A stretch of DNA of 64,000 nucleotides from Candidatus Krumholzibacteriota bacterium (GTDB lineage: Bacteria > Krumholzibacteriota > Krumholzibacteriia > JAJRXK01). Made by a program: the position numbers and the translations under genes. The stretch lies in assembly GCA_963764625.1 (NCBI GenBank), contig CAVXTH010000008.1, forward strand, positions 64,001 to 128,000. The letters are read 5' to 3'. Shown here piece after piece: positions 25,053 through 50,702 of the stretch. The notes under the pieces were generated by a model. That model was not told the origin of the DNA. It worked only from the letters and a program-made list of their open reading frames with translations, and did no database searches. Within the stretch, counting starts at the first letter, position 1. Every line of letters starts with the position of its first letter.

Positions 25053-27773
25053 CTAGAGTCCTGCCACATGCACGAGATACTCCCTCACCGCGGCCCCTTC
25101 CCTCTCGCGCAGGCCGAGGCAATCGCCCACGCCCTCGGCCACCTTGTCCAGCTCCTTTTCCTGACCCGCCTTGTAATGCGGGCCGTCCTGCGCAAAGAAG
25201 GCGCGCGCCGCCTCGATCCGGTCGGCCGAGCAGCCCGCGGCGAAGTACGGCATGTACACCGCGAACATGGGCGGCATCTTCTCCATGAGTTGATCGTAAT
25301 TACTCGTCATCCAGTCCCACAAGATCTTCGCGTGGTCCTCGTTGCCGGTCTGGCCGATGCCCATGGGGATGGTGAAGACTTCCTGGGGCCGCAGGTCTCC
25401 GTGGAGACAGTAGTAGAGAGCGTGCTGGATCATGGCCGGGTCGGTGAACCAACCCAAACCGGCCAGGTAGCGACTCCGGTCGGCAGGGATTTTCGAGGTT
25501 TCGAATCCCTTCTTGTACTTGTTGTAGAGCCGCCATCCGCCGCCTTCCAGGGCCGTGATCTGCATGCACTGCCCCAGAACCGAGGGGTCGGCCGTGCCCT
25601 GCCCATCAAGATAGGCTTCGGTGGTCGATCTGGCGTAGGCGATGACGTCCTTGTCGTGCGCGTACTTGCCCAACCACGCGATGAGATTTGGCCGCAAAAG
25701 CGCCGCCGCTTCGCTCTCCCCTTTTCGCGGAGTCAGCCCGAACCGTTCCCGCGCCGGGCCCAGCATCTTGGATACGTAGACGGCAAAAGCATTCTCGAGA
25801 TCCGGGGTGACGAACGCCATGCGCACTTTCCCCATCGCTCCCGTCATGGCCGCGATCACTTCGGGCCGCGGATCGTCAGCCAGGTTGGCAATGACTTTCA
25901 AGTAGTTGCCCCCATCGATACGGCCGGCGTCCAGAAGAGCGGAAACCTGACCCACGAAGGCCACGCGCTCGCGCGGGTTCATGATGTCCACCGCGTCCTT
26001 CGAGAGACGGTTCAAGGTTGCGGGGTCCACGTCCCAGTGGTAGTAGCCCCGCTCGTCGTCGTTGGGATGGATCCACGCCAACTTGCCGGTGGTGGGCAGG
26101 TCGAGCGTCTCTTGGGGTGAACTCAGGAGAGTGCGGACGGTGCGCACCTGCTTCCCGTCGGAGTAGCGCAGCACGACCGGCAGCTGCCAGGTCTGCGCCA
26201 TTTTGTTCTTGGCGCCATAGTTCGCGAAGCGCTCCTGGTGCAGGGAGATCTTTCCATCTCCCAGATCGCTCACGCTCAACAGCGGCACTCCGGGTTGATC
26301 GAGGAAGGTCGACATCGCGGTCCCGATGTCCACCCCGGAGGCCTCGCTCATCGAAGCCCACAGATCGGCCGCGACCGCATTCCCCCAGGCGTTCTCCTTC
26401 ACGTAGGTCAGGATGGTCTTGCGGAAGAGATCTTCCCCCATCCAGTTCTCGAACATCCCCAGCACCGCCATGCCCTTCTCGTAGGTGAGTCCATCGGCGG
26501 CCTGCAACAGTTGGACTTCATTCGTCACCGGCTGCCGGATCGCGCGGGCGTTCTGCTGCGCGTCGGTTCCCATCGCACCTTCGACTCCGAGTACATTCGT
26601 GACTGCGATGCTGTATTCGGGAAAGACTCTGTCTGTGATCTTGTTGCCCAGCCAGGTGGCGAACGACTCGTTGAGCCAGAGATCGTCCCACCAATCCATC
26701 GTCACCTTGTCACCGAACCACATGTGCGCCATCTCGTGGGTCATGGTCGAGGCCATGCCTCGCTTTGCCCGTACTGTGGTTTCCTTGGGATCCATGAGGA
26801 GAATCGTCTCGCGGAAGGTGATGAAGCCCACGTTCTCCATGGCTCCGGCCCAGAACTCCGGCACCGCGACCAGATCGAGTTTCGCGTAGGGGTAGGGTTC
26901 GCCGAAATACTCCTCGAGCGCCTTCAGCAGGGGCGGCGCCATGCGCACCGCCTCCTTTACCAGATCCGATTTGCCCGCGACGGTGATGACGCGTCCTGGT
27001 ACTCCCAGTCCGGGAATGTCCGTGGTTTCCAAAGGACCCGCGGCCAGAGCGAGCAGGTAGGAAGGCATGGGCTTGGTGACCTTGAAGGCCACCTCACGCC
27101 ACCCGTCCTTCGTGCTCTCCTGTTCGATGGGCGTGTTCGAGTAGACTTTCTGTCCCTCGGGAACCGAGATCGTCATCTGCCAGGGAATCTTGAAACGCGG
27201 TTCGTCATAACAGGGAAAGGCCTGGCGGGCATCGATGGCCTCGAACTGAGTGAAGAGATAGGCCTTGCCGTCAGTGACCAGACGATAGAGACCGCGTGCC
27301 GTGGTATCGAATTCTTGGGAGAACTCGATGCTGAGCGTGTACTCGGCCGTGGGCTCGAGAGCTTTCGCCGCCTTGAAGTTTACTCTCTTGTCGTCTTGCA
27401 TCTTGAAGGTCACGGGGATCATTCCGGTGGGACCCTCCAACTCCACTTTCTGAAACTCCATGTCCTCGGCGTGGAGCTGAAAGTGATCTCTCGTTTCCTT
27501 GGGCTTGAGATGAATGTAAACCACCCCGGTATAGCTCGTCTCTTCGGGATTCAGTCGCAGTTGGATTTCCTCGAAGATGGGGGCAATCGCATCGTCGAGA
27601 CGAATGCTTGCCGTCGGCGCGGACTTCGCCTTAGCGACCGTGGCCTGTGATTCCGCGCCTGAGGTCGCGAGGGAGTCGGCCTTCGAGTCAGTGGCGGAGC
27701 CTTGTCCGAGCGCGGCGTTCGCGCTGAAGCACAGAAGGATTCCCAATCCGAGACGCAGCAGGTGAGTCCGCAT
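25053..27773 (-). CDS. M1 family aminopeptidase with an ERAP1-like C-terminal domain, secreted
   Basis: TQFEAIDARQAFPC, GAMEN, HEMAH...WLNESFA and YEKG. Confidence 0.96.
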   Translation of the reverse strand: MRTHLLRLGLGILLCFSANAALGQGSATDSKADSLATSGAESQATVAKAKSAPTASIRLDDAIAPIFEEIQLRLNPEETSYTGVVYIHLKPKETRDHFQLHAEDMEFQKVELEGPTGMIPVTFKMQDDKRVNFKAAKALEPTAEYTLSIEFSQEFDTTARGLYRLVTDGKAYLFTQFEAIDARQAFPCYDEPRFKIPWQMTISVPEGQKVYSNTPIEQESTKDGWREVAFKVTKPMPSYLLALAAGPLETTDIPGLGVPGRVITVAGKSDLVKEAVRMAPPLLKALEEYFGEPYPYAKLDLVAVPEFWAGAMENVGFITFRETILLMDPKETTVRAKRGMASTMTHEMAHMWFGDKVTMDWWDDLWLNESFATWLGNKITDRVFPEYSIAVTNVLGVEGAMGTDAQQNARAIRQPVTNEVQLLQAADGLTYEKGMAVLGMFENWMGEDLFRKTILTYVKENAWGNAVAADLWASMSEASGVDIGTAMSTFLDQPGVPLLSVSDLGDGKISLHQERFANYGAKNKMAQTWQLPVVLRYSDGKQVRTVRTLLSSPQETLDLPTTGKLAWIHPNDDERGYYHWDVDPATLNRLSKDAVDIMNPRERVAFVGQVSALLDAGRIDGGNYLKVIANLADDPRPEVIAAMTGAMGKVRMAFVTPDLENAFAVYVSKMLGPARERFGLTPRKGESEAAALLRPNLIAWLGKYAHDKDVIAYARSTTEAYLDGQGTADPSVLGQCMQITALEGGGWRLYNKYKKGFETSKIPADRSRYLAGLGWFTDPAMIQHALYYCLHGDLRPQEVFTIPMGIGQTGNEDHAKILWDWMTSNYDQLMEKMPPMFAVYMPYFAAGCSADRIEAARAFFAQDGPHYKAGQEKELDKVAEGVGDCLGLREREGAAVREYLVHVAGL

Positions 27774-27929
27774 GGCGGTGACGCTGAACATCGAACGATC
27801 TCCTTGGAGGAATTCAAGTCAATTGGCGAAAACAGCCCTTTCGCCTACGATGCAAGGGGTGGAAAGAGTTGCACCGATCGCGCGTGATACATTGGGCGTC
27901 TCCGTCCGCAAATGCAAGGACCGAGGTCG

Positions 27930-30002
27930 ATGAAGACAGAAACTCGAGCCTACGGCAGCTGGAAGAGCCCCATCACTCCCTCCTCCCTCGCGGCAGGCTC
28001 TCTGAATCTGTCGCAACTGCGCGTGGCCAACGGCCGCGCGTATTGGGCCGAGATGCGTCCCGCCGAGGAAGGACGCGTGGCCATCGTGTCCTGCCCGCTG
28101 CGGGGTGGGCCGGTGCGCGAAGAAATTCCCGCTGTGATGAGCGCGCGCAACCGCGTCAACGAATACGGCAGCGGCGCCTATTGCGTGAGCGACGATGGCC
28201 TGTGGTTCACCAACCTAAAGGACCAGAGACTCTATCGAATCGGTGTCGACGGGGCCTGCGTTCCCATCACCCCTGCAGCGACCGAAGATCAGCGCTATTG
28301 CGATCCGCAGCTCAGTCCCGACGGACGCTGGATCGTCTGTCAGCGGGAGCGGCATCCCGCGGTGGCGTCAACCCGCGCGGGCGAGGTGCTCAACGAGCTC
28401 GTGCTCGTGCCGGCGGACGGATCGGATGCGCCGAGAGTGATCGCGTCCGGCTGTGACTTCTACGGCCCGGCACGCCTGCGCCCCGACGGCAGGGCCCTGG
28501 CGTGGTTGCAGTGGAATCACCCCCAAATGCCCTGGGATGGTTGCGAGCTCATGGTGGCAAGCTTGGGCGCGGACGGCACGGTGCGCGACCCACGACGCGT
28601 CGCGGGCGGGAAGACGGTCAGCGTCTTTCAACCCTCATGGTCGGCCGAGGGCGTTCTCCATTTTGTGAGCGATCAGAGCGGCTGGTGGAATTTGTATCGT
28701 CTCGAAGACCAGGTGGCGCGCAACCTCTGCCCCATGGAAGCGGAGTTCGGCAGCCCCTACTGGGCGTTCTGGATTTCGATGCACACCCATCTCGAGAGTG
28801 GACGCATCGCCTCTCTCTGCATCGAGAAAGGGCAGGAGCGATTGGGTTTGGTGGATGCCGATCGCGGATGTTTCGAAGCCTTTGCGCTGCCTTTGAGCAA
28901 CTTCGGACAGGGTGGCGAACTCGTGAGCGACGGCGCCGACCGTCTCGTTTTTCTGGGTGGATCTCCCACGCGCGCGACCGCAATCTATTCTCTTTCGCTG
29001 CAAGACCACGCCGCGCGTGAGGGCTTGGGGACCAACCACGCCCTACGCGAACTCCACCGGCCCGGCGCAGAAGAGATCGACCCGCGCTATCTCTCGGAGC
29101 CCCGCGTGATTTCCTTTCCCGCCGCACCCTTCTCCAACCGCTGGAGCGGCAGAACCCCGGGAGAGGTGGAAACGAGAGGCGATGGCGACGCCGTGTCCCA
29201 TACGGCCCATGCCTTTTATTACCCGCCCAAGAACGACGACTACGTGGCGCCCGAAGGAGAGCGACCTCCCCTGGTGGTCATGTGTCACGGCGGCCCGACC
29301 GGCGCCACGAATACCGCGCTCATGCTCAAGGCGCAGTTCTGGACGAGCCGTGGTTTCGCGGTAGTGGACGTGAACTATCGGGGCAGCACCGGGTATGGAC
29401 GCGCGTATCGCGAGGCGATCAACGGCAACAGCGGGCTGGTGGAGCCGCGCGACTGCGAGGCGGCCGCACGCTACCTGGCGAAGGAAGGACTGGTCGATGA
29501 AGCGCGCATGGCGGTGCGCGGGGGCAGCGCCGGCGGGTACGTCGTGCTGTGCTGCGCCGTGTTTCCCTCGGGGGATGACTCCTGCTTCAGCGCCGGTACT
29601 TCACTCTACGGAATCGGCGACCTCGAAGCTCTGGTGCGCGACACCCACAAGTTCGAGTCGCACTACCCCTTCACTCTCATCGCACCCTACCCGGCCGAAC
29701 GGGAAGTCTACCGCGAGCGCTCCCCTCTTTACTTCGTGCAGCGGGCCGCGTTCCCGCTCTTCTTGATGCAGGGTCTGCAGGATCCGGTCGTCCCCCCCAA
29801 TCAGGCCGAGGGCATGGCCAAGGCCCTGCGGGAGGCCCACCTTCCCTTCGCCTACCTTCCCTTTGAGGGGGAAGGGCACGGCTTTAGGCGAGAGGAAAAT
29901 ATCGCCAAGAGCTTCGCCGCGGAGCTCTCGTTCTACGGCCAGGTGTTCGGATTCCGCCCGGATTCGGTCGATTTCGCGCTAAAAATCGAAAATTTGGGGT
30001 GA
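27930..30002 (+). CDS. S9 family (prolyl oligopeptidase / acylaminoacyl peptidase-like) serine peptidase
   Basis: YGSWKSPI N-terminus, HGGPT, NYRGSTGYG, GGSAGG, DPVVPP and EGHGF. Confidence 0.95.
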   Translation: MKTETRAYGSWKSPITPSSLAAGSLNLSQLRVANGRAYWAEMRPAEEGRVAIVSCPLRGGPVREEIPAVMSARNRVNEYGSGAYCVSDDGLWFTNLKDQRLYRIGVDGACVPITPAATEDQRYCDPQLSPDGRWIVCQRERHPAVASTRAGEVLNELVLVPADGSDAPRVIASGCDFYGPARLRPDGRALAWLQWNHPQMPWDGCELMVASLGADGTVRDPRRVAGGKTVSVFQPSWSAEGVLHFVSDQSGWWNLYRLEDQVARNLCPMEAEFGSPYWAFWISMHTHLESGRIASLCIEKGQERLGLVDADRGCFEAFALPLSNFGQGGELVSDGADRLVFLGGSPTRATAIYSLSLQDHAAREGLGTNHALRELHRPGAEEIDPRYLSEPRVISFPAAPFSNRWSGRTPGEVETRGDGDAVSHTAHAFYYPPKNDDYVAPEGERPPLVVMCHGGPTGATNTALMLKAQFWTSRGFAVVDVNYRGSTGYGRAYREAINGNSGLVEPRDCEAAARYLAKEGLVDEARMAVRGGSAGGYVVLCCAVFPSGDDSCFSAGTSLYGIGDLEALVRDTHKFESHYPFTLIAPYPAEREVYRERSPLYFVQRAAFPLFLMQGLQDPVVPPNQAEGMAKALREAHLPFAYLPFEGEGHGFRREENIAKSFAAELSFYGQVFGFRPDSVDFALKIENLG

Positions 30003-30040
30003 GCTGGCTCAAACGCGCCGCGATTCCGTATAATCAATGT

Positions 30041-30190
30041 GAGGCCGGCAACGGTCTCGGATGTTAGCCGAAACTCCGTGCTGAGCGAATCGCTCTGCTG
30101 GGATTCAGGCGCCAGGTCCTGAATCTCGGAGTCTTGTCTGTGAAGCATCGGACACTTCGGGAGGCGGCCCATTGGGCCGCCTTCTCTTTG
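30041..30190 (+). ncRNA. Candidate structured small RNA with its own -10 box and intrinsic terminator
   Basis: TATAAT at 30029-30034; six helices identified by eye; terminator 30162-30182; lies between convergent genes; no known family recognised. Confidence 0.6.
30162..30189 (+). terminator. Rho-independent terminator
   Basis: AGGCGGCCC-ATT-GGGCCGCCT followed by TCTCTTT. Confidence 0.75.
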
Positions 30191-30199
30191 GGTGCTTCT

Positions 30200-31657
30200 C
30201 TAGTCGCGAGGAAAGAAGCGAAAGCAACTCTGGGGACTCCAGCGCGGTCCGCCCCGCGTTTGCGCCAGACGATAGCCCGCCCGCAGGGCCATGCGTAGCT
30301 CGCTCGGCCGGACTCCCAACAGCGCGGCTGGTACGCCTCTTTTCGCAAAGGCTAGCGCACCCGAGTCGAACCAATCCGTATCGTCGTCTCGATTTCGCAC
30401 TCCCAGTTCGTCGAAGCGCGCGGCCTCGCCCAAGTACCTTCCCAGTTCGTTGTCGCGCGTACCCTCGACGACCAAAGTGTCGTGCGGCGCTGCCGTGGTC
30501 TCTTCTCCCTTCAGCACCAGCGCCCCCGCGCATCCGCTGAGATCGAACGGTGCGACGAGTGCGAACTCCTCGGCACCAAGATTTCCCCGTGTGCTGAGCG
30601 TACTTGCCACGAAGGCAACCGTACGCGCCGGTCGCTGCGGTAGCGCAGAGTACGCGGTGGCCAGAGCGAGCAGCCCCGCGGTGGCACGCGCGTTGGCGCT
30701 TCCGCCATCCCACGGCGCGCAGTATACGATGCTCTGCTCCTCGGCGTACCGGCCGGGAATCTCCCCCACCACGTTGAAGGAACGCGACTGGCGCACCTCG
30801 AGGGTAACCTCGCCCTCGACTTTGGGCGAAAGAACCCGCCCGCGAAAACCTTGAGTGTGTGCGGCCCACCGTGCGCGCTTCACCTGGATGCCCGCTTCTT
30901 TCAAGATGCGTGTGCCGGCCTCTTCAGAGATCCAGGCTTGGAAGCGACAGTTCGACGCCAGCTCCTCGCGGCGGAAAAGCGCAAAGCCTTCGAAGCGTTC
31001 CTTCCACCGGGCCCACTCGGCGGCCGAGCGCGTCGAGTCGGGCATGAGCAACACGCCCAACGCTCCACGGCGTTTTGCTTCCGCCACTTGATAGCGCCAG
31101 TGGGAGTACCAGTCACTGGTATCGGGGCGCGGGGGGTCGAAATCGGCGAGAACGAGCACCACTTTACCCACGACGGAAAGACCTTGGTAGTCGTCGCGGC
31201 GGCGCTCGGGGGCCACCACGCCCCGGCCGACGAAGACGAGAGCGCTCGACGGAATGTGAAGGCTGGTACTATCAGCGCGCGCGGAGAGGAGAAGGTTCTC
31301 CCCCTGACCTAATTCGGTGGAGCCCACCTGAAGTTTTGCCGTGCCCACCCGCGTGGCGACGGTCGCAACCGCCTGCAGATACTTCCCCTCGTCGCCCGCC
31401 GGTTGCAGCCCGATTTGAGCGAAGCGTCGCATGAGATGACGCAGGGTTCGACGCTCGGTCTCGCCGAAGGGTGGACGGGGCGCGTGCCCTTCCCCTTCGA
31501 GCGCACGAGAGTCGGCTGCGATGTCAGCTGGCTGCATGGTGGCGACGACCGCGGCCGGCACTTTGGTGGAGAGCCGGTCCCAACCGAAACGCAGGCAGCC
31601 GGAGGCAGCGAGCGCGAATCCCGCGAGCAGAAGGATCAGCCCGCGTCGGCGCATCAT
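30200..31657 (-). CDS. M28 peptidase-like lipoprotein with a PA domain; zinc ligands degenerate
   Basis: Lipobox ASGC; PA-domain LVFVG.GVVAPE..RDDY.GL.V.GKVVLVL; SFNVVGEIPG; catalytic motifs altered. Confidence 0.8.
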   Translation of the reverse strand: MMRRRGLILLLAGFALAASGCLRFGWDRLSTKVPAAVVATMQPADIAADSRALEGEGHAPRPPFGETERRTLRHLMRRFAQIGLQPAGDEGKYLQAVATVATRVGTAKLQVGSTELGQGENLLLSARADSTSLHIPSSALVFVGRGVVAPERRRDDYQGLSVVGKVVLVLADFDPPRPDTSDWYSHWRYQVAEAKRRGALGVLLMPDSTRSAAEWARWKERFEGFALFRREELASNCRFQAWISEEAGTRILKEAGIQVKRARWAAHTQGFRGRVLSPKVEGEVTLEVRQSRSFNVVGEIPGRYAEEQSIVYCAPWDGGSANARATAGLLALATAYSALPQRPARTVAFVASTLSTRGNLGAEEFALVAPFDLSGCAGALVLKGEETTAAPHDTLVVEGTRDNELGRYLGEAARFDELGVRNRDDDTDWFDSGALAFAKRGVPAALLGVRPSELRMALRAGYRLAQTRGGPRWSPQSCFRFFPRD

Positions 31658-32664
31658 GATTTGGCTTTTCTGCGCGATTTTTCGATGAAGCTGTGTCCGA
31701 TTGCGGCGCGGTGGATCTCGCGAATCGTGTCGATGCCCAGCTCCTTGAGAAAGAGCGCACTCTCACGGTTTTGGCTGGTGGCGCTCACCGTGGTGTTGTC
31801 GGTGCACAGCGCGACCGGAATGCCGTACTCGAGAAAAGTGAAGATGGGGTGCCGCTCCCCGCGCGCGACCGCGCCGGTCTGGTAGTTCGAGCTGGGGGCG
31901 CACTCGACCAAAATTTGATCCTTGGCCATTCTCTTCAGCAGCGCTTTGTCCTGCACGGCACTGCAACCGTGACCGATGCGGGTGCAACCCAGCGTGTCGA
32001 TGGACTCCCAGATGTAGGCCGGGCCTTCCGCCTCGCCGGCGTGCGCGGTGAGACCCAGGCCGGCTTGTCCGGCGATCTCGTACGCTTTGTGGAAAAGGTG
32101 CGGTGCGTTGCCTTTTTCCGCACCGGCGATGTCGAAACCGATCACGCCGCAGCGATCGTGCAGATGCTGGGCGTCTCCGGCCGCGCCGCGGGCCAGGATT
32201 TTGGCGATGTGCGGGCCGTGGTGGCGCATGGCGATGACGATGAGTCCGGTTTGAATTCCAAAGTCCTTCTCGGCGTGGTTCAGGGCCGAGAGCACCGCGC
32301 GGATGGATTGGCGAATCGTGAGCCCGCCGTAGATGTGGATGATCGGCGAGTAGCGCAGCTCGAGGGTCTTTACTCCGTTCTTGGCCGCCTCGGCGCAGAT
32401 GGTAGCGGTGACCTGGGTGATGTTCTCGTAGAATTGGGTGATCCACATCGGGTAGTGAAACTTGTCGAGATAGCTCAGCAGCGAGCCCTCTTCCTCGGGC
32501 TGCAGGACCAGAAGCTTTCTCATCTCGCGCAGGCTGTCCACCGGGTTGAGTCCGTAGCGCTTCATGATGCGCCAGGTCACGGCCGCCGGAATCGAACCGT
32601 CGACGTGTTGGTGGAGCTCGGTCTTCGCAAGCTTGCGTATGGACGCGGGGATCGTAGGGTTCAT
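31654..32664 (-). CDS. add: Adenosine/adenine deaminase family protein
   Basis: KTELHQHVDGS, ELRYSP, GFDIAG.E, HAGE, RIGHG and CTDN. Confidence 0.9.
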   Translation of the reverse strand: MNPTIPASIRKLAKTELHQHVDGSIPAAVTWRIMKRYGLNPVDSLREMRKLLVLQPEEEGSLLSYLDKFHYPMWITQFYENITQVTATICAEAAKNGVKTLELRYSPIIHIYGGLTIRQSIRAVLSALNHAEKDFGIQTGLIVIAMRHHGPHIAKILARGAAGDAQHLHDRCGVIGFDIAGAEKGNAPHLFHKAYEIAGQAGLGLTAHAGEAEGPAYIWESIDTLGCTRIGHGCSAVQDKALLKRMAKDQILVECAPSSNYQTGAVARGERHPIFTFLEYGIPVALCTDNTTVSATSQNRESALFLKELGIDTIREIHRAAIGHSFIEKSRRKAKS

Positions 32665-44609: not shown

Positions 44610-45359
44610 ATGAGCATGGACACCCTTCTGGCCCGCTACCTCGACGGGGAGCTCGACGATGAAGAGGCCCGCGTCTTTCTTCAACGGCTCGAAACCGATC
44701 CCCATCTCGCGGCGGAGTTGCGCGACTACGAGAGAATTCTCGCCAGCGCCCAACTCTTGCGCGAGGTGAACGCACCTTCCGGTTTCACACAGAGCGTGAT
44801 GGAGCGCGTCGCAGAGGAGGCTCCCCCGCGCCGCAGTGTATCTTTGAGCCCCGGCCGGGCAGCCCGCCCGCGAGCGAAGGGGTGGGCGTGGCGTCCAGCA
44901 TTAGCCATGGCCGCGGTCCTTCTCGTGGCATTCGTCCTGGGCCGCATGACCGTGGGGTCATCGAACTTTGAGATCGACGGCGTAAATTCTCCTCCGCAGC
45001 TCTCTCAGCTCCGGTCCACCCTAAACGTGGGACAACCCCGGACGGAAACGGCGTCGCTCGTCGCCGCGGGGGGCGCTTCGGCTTCGCGCGACTTTCGCAT
45101 CGTGCGCTTGATCTACTCCCCACAACGCGAGGATCTCGAGTCGGTCTCCGTGGCCGGCAGTTTCAACGGCTGGAATGCGCATAGCCTTCCCCTGAAGAAG
45201 ACCGGCGGGGTATGGACGACGACGCTGGTGCTTCCTCCGGGAGCCTACGAATACATGTTCATCGAGAATGGAAATCACTGGGTTACCGATCCGCTGGCTC
45301 CTTACACCCGGGATGACGGTTTCGGAAATCGCAATGCCGTGCTCGAGCTGGGAGCCTGA
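44610..45359 (+). CDS. Anti-sigma factor: N-terminal anti-sigma domain, one TM helix and a C-terminal CBM48/AMPK glycogen-binding-type domain
   Basis: LLARYLDGEL and APSGFTQSVM; TM ALAMAAVLLVAFVLG; VSVAGSFNGW...W...LPPGAYEYMF...WVTDP...DDGFG.RNAVL. Confidence 0.85.
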   Translation: MSMDTLLARYLDGELDDEEARVFLQRLETDPHLAAELRDYERILASAQLLREVNAPSGFTQSVMERVAEEAPPRRSVSLSPGRAARPRAKGWAWRPALAMAAVLLVAFVLGRMTVGSSNFEIDGVNSPPQLSQLRSTLNVGQPRTETASLVAAGGASASRDFRIVRLIYSPQREDLESVSVAGSFNGWNAHSLPLKKTGGVWTTTLVLPPGAYEYMFIENGNHWVTDPLAPYTRDDGFGNRNAVLELGA

Positions 45360-46734: not shown

Positions 46735-46753
46735 GAACTCGTCCATTTTTCTC

Positions 46754-46782
46754 GTAACCTGCGCGGCCCACTCTCGTCTCAT
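46754..46782 (+). promoter_or_regulatory. Candidate ECF-sigma promoter
   Basis: GTAAC-N17-GTCTCAT upstream of 46844. Confidence 0.65.
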
Positions 46783-46843
46783 GGTCTGAACGCGGCGAAC
46801 CGGGAGCCCACGGATTCGCCTGTACCAGGAAAGGAACTCCGTC

Positions 46844-50627: not shown

Positions 50628-50702
50628 CGGCAAATTGAGGGAAGATCCGGTAGGATCGTACTTGGTAATTTACCGATTAGTAGATTTGTATCTATATATA
50701 AT

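Follow-up and report, generated by a model that had tools for sequence, protein, structure and literature searches.

A candidate small RNA gene of no known family between convergent peptidase genes of a Krumholzibacteriota bacterium

Introduction

DapZ and MicL of enterobacteria are small RNAs (sRNAs) that are embedded in the 3′ untranslated region (3′UTR) of a protein gene and have their own promoter near the end of that upstream gene. Another described arrangement is an antisense RNA under the control of a riboswitch, as exemplified by the B12 riboswitch and AspocR in Listeria and by the S-box antisense RNA in Clostridium acetobutylicum. Many orphan sRNA candidates are known that occur in one genus only. 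For the uncultured phylum Krumholzibacteriota, no description of a non-coding RNA was found in full-text literature searches, whose records consisted partly of titles and the beginnings of abstracts, and no paper on a riboswitch of this phylum came up in a full-text search. Passages of PMC13443453, a paper that came up for small RNA, concern CsrA homologues.

Here I report a stretch of roughly 150 nt that, as judged from sequence comparison, looks like a real and selectively conserved sRNA gene of no known family. It belongs to a Krumholzibacteriota genome (G000; 3.57 Mb in nine contigs, 96% complete, 62% GC) and lies in what is called the window below, that is, the whole 64-kb stretch of DNA that was analysed. 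Once validated, such an sRNA would offer a first handle on post-transcriptional control in a lineage that seemingly lacks Hfq.

Results

Genomic Context and Parts of the Element

The candidate RNA element fills most of a gap of 197 nt (30003-30199) between a plus-strand S9 peptidase gene and the convergent M28 and add genes on the minus strand. The genes and the parts of the element are as follows.

25053-27791, minus strand: M1 aminopeptidase gene, further left
27912-30002, plus strand: S9 prolyl-oligopeptidase-family peptidase gene, 696 aa (ORF; Pfam PF00326, E 2.6e-45)
30003-30040, plus strand: conserved leader or promoter region, with TATAAT at 30029-30034 and a weak -35
30041-30058, plus strand: P1, a 7-bp 5′ hairpin with a GNRA tetraloop (GAGGCCG-GCAA-CGGTCTC; pair probability 0.99-1.00 in 3/3 copies)
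30059-30158, plus strand: central domain, nearly invariant in sequence, with two near-isoenergetic folds (A and B)
30100-30126, plus strand: Pc, a central hairpin common to folds A and B, with a variable loop (pair probability 0.77-0.95)
30159-30189, plus strand: intrinsic terminator; 12-bp stem whose GC core measures 9 bp, AUU loop, UUCUCUUU tail (pair probability 1.00)
30200-31657, minus strand: convergent gene of an M28-family peptidase, 485 aa (Pfam PF04389, E 9.5e-05)
31654-32664, minus strand: adenosine deaminase gene (add), upstream of the M28 gene (Pfam PF00962, E 7.4e-70)

The stop codon of the S9 gene was read directly as TGA at 30000-30002, and the stop codon of the M28 gene lies 10 nt from the element. 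The original prediction had placed the element between two convergent stop codons with no downstream sense gene, and the ORF map agrees: the neighbour is convergent, no same-strand gene follows the element, and the nearest plus-strand ORF is 1658 nt off in a crude ORF map. In the region 25053-32664, three peptidase genes (M1, S9 and M28) stand beside the adenosine deaminase gene, and this cluster suggests a peptide and purine salvage neighbourhood.

The complementary segments on which the original prediction was built are all present, as was seen by direct reading: CCGAA/TTCGG at 30068-30072 and 30156-30160, ACTCCG/CGGAGT at 30073-30078 and 30127-30132, GAGCG/CGCTC at 30083-30095, GATTCAGG/CCTGAATC at 30102-30125, and TGTCTG/CGGACA at 30135-30154. 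The architecture that had been drawn from them, two nested three-way junctions, is not supported (see below). The observation was confirmed in part and its interpretation is supported in part.

Known Families, Repeats, and Coding Potential

The element belongs to no known family. No model of Rfam 15 (4227 models) matched the whole 64-kb window at the gathering score and no tRNA or tmRNA gene was detected in the window by ARAGORN, in line with the original prediction, which saw no match to the cores of tRNA, SRP, 6S, tmRNA or riboswitches. At E ≤ 10, the region 29900-30300 gave six weak matches, the best of which was STnc70 (RF02069; 18.5 bits, E 0.17; gathering threshold 40). STnc70 shares with the element a GC-rich terminator hairpin and a U tail at its end, but only this terminator part aligns with confidence, and the element is not a member of the family. 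Sigma-54 and hammerhead cores, compared by eye with the consensus, did not fit, and there was no match to a ribozyme in Rfam.

BLAST against the own genome returned the element itself and fragments of at most 31 nt, so that there is a single full-length copy rather than the many genomic copies that the original prediction had named as a sign of a repeat. REP/MITE-like repeats are likewise intergenic and hairpin-rich, and here the element too lies between convergent genes; with one copy in a 3.57-Mb genome, a repeat of this kind is ruled out. The second match of the covariance model R1 in the same genome (C6:546181, 28.7 bits) is a false positive because it consists of the final 95 nt of an ORF of 530 aa and the terminator behind it. 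Nothing similar was found in plasmid and phage collections by BLAST or in viral contigs by a pattern scan. A small protein gene was also considered; in the six-frame translation of the three known copies, no frame is open in all of them, and the copy of the second species carries two 1-nt indels. This comparison of sequences shows the element to be non-coding.

Distribution

Is the element common among related bacteria? BLAST against 61 relatives revealed a full-length copy in another species of the same genus (G002; 84% over 171 nt, E 1e-46), and all further matches were fragments no longer than 54 nt (E ≥ 0.001). The covariance model R1 found the element only in G000 and G002 among 10 genomes of the family, and among 151 genomes of the class it matched at full length only in these two, while four others matched in the terminator part only. 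A 19-base pattern, scanned against bacteria and archaea with each species represented by one genome, hit the G002 record only. A search of metagenome contigs that was anchored on the M28 protein gave one contig (L050) whose M28 is 96% identical and in which the element scores 186.8 bits; this strain variant was also seen in a DNA run. The known copies thus come from two species plus one additional strain, and the element was not found in the other three genomes of the genus, the other five of the family, or the rest of the 151 class genomes.

At the corresponding loci of the relatives, G004 has an S9 orthologue (58% identical) followed by a 32-nt gap and then a different convergent ORF, and G001 has an M28 orthologue (47% identical) without such a neighbour. 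With filters off, R1 gave at most 6.3 bits at the syntenic loci of G001, G003, G004, and G006. The S9 contig of G003 breaks off at residue 651, with 45 codons still to go to the stop, and the site is not assembled in that genome; a BLAST fragment from G003 (22 nt, 95%) is a chance match because it lies within a long ORF.

The assemblies of G002 and G003 both break in the S9 gene at about residue 651 (window 29860-29885), near CCTTCCCTTTGAGGGGGAAGGGCACGG. Contigs C1 and C4 of G002 abut at this break, and the end of L046 is also there. A conserved motif common to S9 paralogues may tangle the assembly graph at this point. Short contigs from other S9-like genes are numerous in run X2, where they accumulate at 29606-29667. 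In G002, the S9 orthologue (C4:3-1981, L048) is read in two frames, covering query residues 6-353 and 345-651, which results either from a frameshift or from an assembly error.

Conservation of the Gap

Synteny between G000 and G002 extends over at least 20 kb, from the S9 tail at 29867 rightward through the M28 and add genes. In the RNA, there are 22 substitutions in 149 aligned columns plus two indel columns, which corresponds to about 84-85% identity. In the flanking genes, synonymous or third codon positions are overall 49-54% identical between the two species. The M28 proteins share 75% of their amino acids and 48.9% of the four-fold degenerate sites (233 sites), and the third codon positions of S9 residues 6-651 are 51-52% identical. 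Among 11 intergenic regions in the 20-kb stretch, the gap holding the element is the best conserved (0.83 versus 0.07-0.78 in a crude ORF map). These comparisons show the element to be conserved well above the synonymous rate, and they support purifying selection on it. The intergenic regions 45124-45267 and 46735-46843 are also conserved between G000 and G002 (0.78 and 0.75, with third positions of about 0.5), and they are possible regulatory leaders.

At the borders of the gap, third-position identity is 71% in the last 45 S9 codons (32/45; binomial p 0.02 against 0.55) and 49% in the first 100 M28 codons. Thus, either a constraint or a recombination tract enters the end of the S9 gene and stops at the M28 stop codon. 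This bears on an improbable explanation in which there is no functional RNA at all, only a terminator and chance structure, and the similarity to G002 stems from an old recombination tract. The raised identity in the S9 tail could mark such a tract, the element occurs in two species only, and the central fold of G002 is no better than those of shuffled sequences. However, with third positions at 49% directly beside the element, the end of the tract would have to coincide exactly with the M28 stop codon, and within the element the substitution rate is 3.5-fold lower in paired columns, where no change breaks the pair.

Pairing Pattern and Strand

Between G000 and G002, substitutions hit 7 of the 92 paired columns and 15 of the 57 unpaired columns of the consensus fold (Fisher p 0.0035). 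All seven substitutions in paired columns keep a standard pair on the plus strand, one pair is changed on both sides, and 138 of 138 cells are paired. In P1 of G002, three one-sided changes (G-C to G-U, G-U to G-C, and C-G to U-G) leave the plus-strand pairing intact, and the loop is GAAA instead of the GCAA of the window, so that the GNRA type is kept. Pc of G002 has one change from G-U to G-C and one compensatory change from U-A to C-G, while five of the eight loop positions differ. The terminator of G002 shows one change from G-C to G-U, and its pairs are complete on the plus strand (12/12) in all copies. When the minus strand is read, P1 forms only 5-6 of 7 pairs (5/7 in G002) and the terminator 9-10 of 12. 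Since the G-U pairs become A-C mismatches on the minus strand, the RNA of the element should be read from the plus strand, and the substitution pattern was shown, at the level of the aligned sequences, to fit RNA pairing on that strand. Formally, the covariation lacks significance: the observed values were reached by 161 of 500 shuffles, a control that is uninformative with only three sequences (two species plus a strain).

The original prediction had drawn Pc as a GAUUCAGG/CCUGAAUC hairpin. In that register, 8, 7, and 6 of the 8 pairs form in the three copies, a loss of one and two pairs, whereas the register shifted by one, in which G30102 pairs with U30124 and A30103 is bulged, holds 8/8 in 3/3 copies. 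Thus, the hairpin stands, although not as drawn.

Another explanation concerns the minus strand. Transcripts of the M28-add operon might run through the element and pair perfectly with the plus-strand RNA, so that the two control the stability of each other. The M28 stop codon is only 10 nt away, and behind the GC stem the minus strand reads UCCCGAAG, with no U-tract that could end such transcripts. I consider a cis-antisense partnership of this kind quite improbable, since the argument for it is purely positional and leaves the selection for plus-strand pairing in P1 unexplained.

Folding of the Element

The 160 nt from 30036 on the plus strand fold at -79.7 kcal/mol (z -4.56), and none of 200 shuffles is as good; for the minus strand of the same stretch, the values are -62.6 kcal/mol, z -3.68, and 1 of 200. 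P1 and the terminator account for much of the overall z-score. Taken alone, the central 100 nt have a z-score of -2.48 in the window (2/200 shuffles as good) and of -1.15 in G002 (25/200). The near-invariance of the center despite this modest stability points to a sequence-specific function and not to stability alone.

The two nested three-way junctions lie 9-19 kcal/mol above the minimum free energy (MFE). The energy of that structure is -66.0 kcal/mol versus an MFE of -75.1 in the window (0/46 pairs lost), -57.3 versus -71.8 in the strain copy of L050 (2/46 lost), and -48.6 versus -67.4 in G002 (5/46 lost). Its UGUCUG/CGGACA hairpin loses one pair in the strain copy and two in G002, and its CCGAA/UUCGG helix loses the outer pair in G002. 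Only P1, Pc, and the terminator are robust, with a high pair probability in all three copies. For the remainder of the center, two folds were found.

Fold A, plus strand: three-way junction of GAUGUU 30060-30065 with AGCAUC 30144-30149 and ACUCCG 30073-30078 with CGGAGU 30127-30132, enclosing hairpins at 30080-30098 and 30100-30126
Fold B, plus strand: extended hairpin of CCGA 30068-30071 with UCGG 30157-30160, UCCG 30075-30078 with CGGA 30149-30152, and GCUCUG 30092-30097 with CGGAGU 30127-30132

When constrained, folds A and B have energies of -73.9 and -73.2 kcal/mol in the window, -71.2 and -71.8 in the strain copy, and -65.0 and -67.4 in G002; in these three diverged copies, the two differ by 0.6-2.4 kcal/mol. 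ACUCCG and GCUCUG are competing partners of one CGGAGU, and the second CGGA (30149-30152) captures UCCG in the other fold. RNAalifold picks fold A, and fold B has 6 unpaired cells out of 144. The helices that tell A and B apart never vary, so the data do not choose between them.

It might be asked whether the invariant center would be a bistable RNA, modelled as a new class of switch that senses a ligand, a protein, or temperature. I rate this as very doubtful, and the same low rating covers the part of the proposal in which the switch would act in trans or on the convergent add/peptidase operon. In its riboswitch-like form, termination versus read-through at 30159-30189 would control antisense transcription into the M28-add operon, as had been suggested originally. 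The setting is suitable in that there is no sense gene downstream and adenosine deaminase is part of the convergent operon, and the two near-isoenergetic central folds arise from invariant segments in all three copies. However, the alternative helices reach into no more than 2 of the 12 pairs of the terminator, so that no anti-terminator is visible, and the pair probability of the terminator core is 1.00 in every copy. No aptamer family was matched, and the element occurs in two species whereas riboswitch classes are normally widespread. Thus, a sensor of this form is a far-fetched reading. A conventional riboswitch was rejected on the same ground, as aptamer helix and terminator are not mutually exclusive, and for the lack of a same-strand gene directly downstream.

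Putative Promoter Region

A perfect TATAAT at 30029-30034 ends 7 nt before P1. Together with the nine bases that precede it, it is invariant in 3/3 copies (GCGATTCCGTATAAT). P1, which starts at this distance from the box, is the predicted 5′ end of the RNA. The best -35 is CTGGCT at 30004-30009, with a 3/6 match and a 19-nt spacer; the hexamer and the weakness of its -35 are as originally described. No sigma-70 promoter was called at the element by a simple consensus scan. In the whole genome, TATAAT occurs 64 times on both strands (7.1 Mb), and 23 of these are intergenic, a 3.4-fold enrichment given that 10.5% of the genome is intergenic in a crude ORF map.

By eye, 13 of the 48 listed tRNA upstream regions of G000 show TTGAC, and several have a -10 of the type TAGCTT, TAGATT, or TAnnnT about 17-18 nt after it; a strong TTGACA is present in several of the listed regions. 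This pattern suggests that classical promoters of the sigma-70 type, with a dominant -35, are used in this genome. There are more intergenic TATAAT boxes without a same-strand ORF within 1.7-6.6 kb downstream (crude ORF map), namely at 50697 of the window (C8:114697, plus strand) and at C1:365, C5:329903, C5:427753, C6:215381, C6:824218, and C7:188555. These orphan boxes are candidate promoters of further non-coding RNAs.

Terminator and S9 Read-Through

The strong terminator that had been noticed at the end of the element is borne out by the 12-bp stem and the UUCUCUUU tail, which are kept in 3/3 copies. A simple scan did not list the 30159-30185 stem as a terminator because its rule leaves 4 T in 8 bases past the fully extended stem. 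Intrinsic terminators of like build are found elsewhere in G000. The terminator is one-directional, since on the minus strand the stem is followed by UCCCGAAG and not by a U-tract. There is no terminator between the S9 stop codon (30002) and 30159. Thus, 30159-30189 must also end the transcription of the S9 gene, and S9 transcripts contain the element as a 3′UTR.

This leads to the main rival explanation, which I regard as possible but on balance unlikely: the element would be a structured 3′UTR of the S9 gene without its own promoter, its hairpins would stabilise or end the S9 mRNA, and any sRNA would arise from processing only. That S9 transcripts must cross the element speaks for it, as do the weak -35 and the absence of a called sigma-70 promoter, and the 71% third-position identity of the last 45 S9 codons may mean that the constraint reaches into the gene. 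On the other hand, a UTR of 150 nt that only stabilises a transcript is not usually kept at 85% identity, the S9 orthologue of G004 has no such UTR in the 32 nt before the next gene, and this explanation does not account for an invariant perfect TATAAT, one of 64 in the genome, placed 7 nt before P1.

Expression and RNA Chaperones

Among the sequencing runs that share words with 29400-30800, one of 20 is an RNA library (share 0.05). On 29600-30600, this library gave a single contig (29600-29698) inside the S9 gene, and the uncovered part says nothing either way. Hfq (PF17209) had no match in the 96% complete G000, while control genomes did match. No convincing CsrA was found in G000 either; PF02599 gave only a sub-threshold match of 19.8 bits inside a 643-aa frame. 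The usual chaperone routes thus do not seem to be available. Accordingly, an Hfq-dependent sRNA was rejected as a class for the element, no Hfq being found in G000, and a decoy of the CsrB/RsmZ type was rejected for the lack of a convincing CsrA and of an array of GGA hairpin loops in the element.

Discussion

The stand-alone non-coding RNA of the original prediction is the best reading because the element is non-coding, present in a single copy, selected, and of no known family, with a conserved -10 and a terminator. What holds up is a structured plus-strand element under selection; its own promoter is putative and its exact fold predicted, and the element is called a candidate. In its specific form, the proposal is that of a genus-restricted regulatory sRNA of about 150 nt (approximately 30041-30189, plus strand) with its own promoter dominated by the -10, which would act independently of Hfq through its invariant central stretches; within S9 transcripts, the same RNA occurs as the 3′UTR in any event. 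I put this forward tentatively, as a proposal that has a good chance of being right but somewhat short of an even one.

In the proposed mechanism, RNA polymerase would start about 7 nt past TATAAT, at the base of the GNRA-capped P1, and the RNA would end at the one-directional intrinsic terminator. P1 and the terminator hairpin may protect the ends of the RNA. The product would be a regulatory RNA that acts in trans and depends on neither Hfq nor CsrA. The near-invariant stretches 30060-30072, 30133-30138, and 30144-30154 may be kept for sequence-specific contacts with target RNAs or a protein; alternatively, they may serve the switching between the two folds.

How does the element compare with the described systems? 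It is of an ordinary kind, an orphan bacterial sRNA candidate. It shares with the riboswitch-controlled antisense RNAs a structured RNA and a terminator that are convergent to an operon, with no downstream sense gene. It is unlike them in that it has no aptamer match, no competition between terminator and anti-terminator, and a very narrow distribution. DapZ and MicL differ from the element in being Hfq-dependent, whereas no Hfq was found in the genome that carries the element, and there is no relation in sequence or in Rfam; the promoter and the transcript are, in the present case, predicted. In layout, the element resembles DapZ and MicL: it lies on the same strand directly after a protein gene, shares the intrinsic terminator of that gene, has a -10 box at the very end of the gene region, and falls in the same size range of about 100-150 nt.
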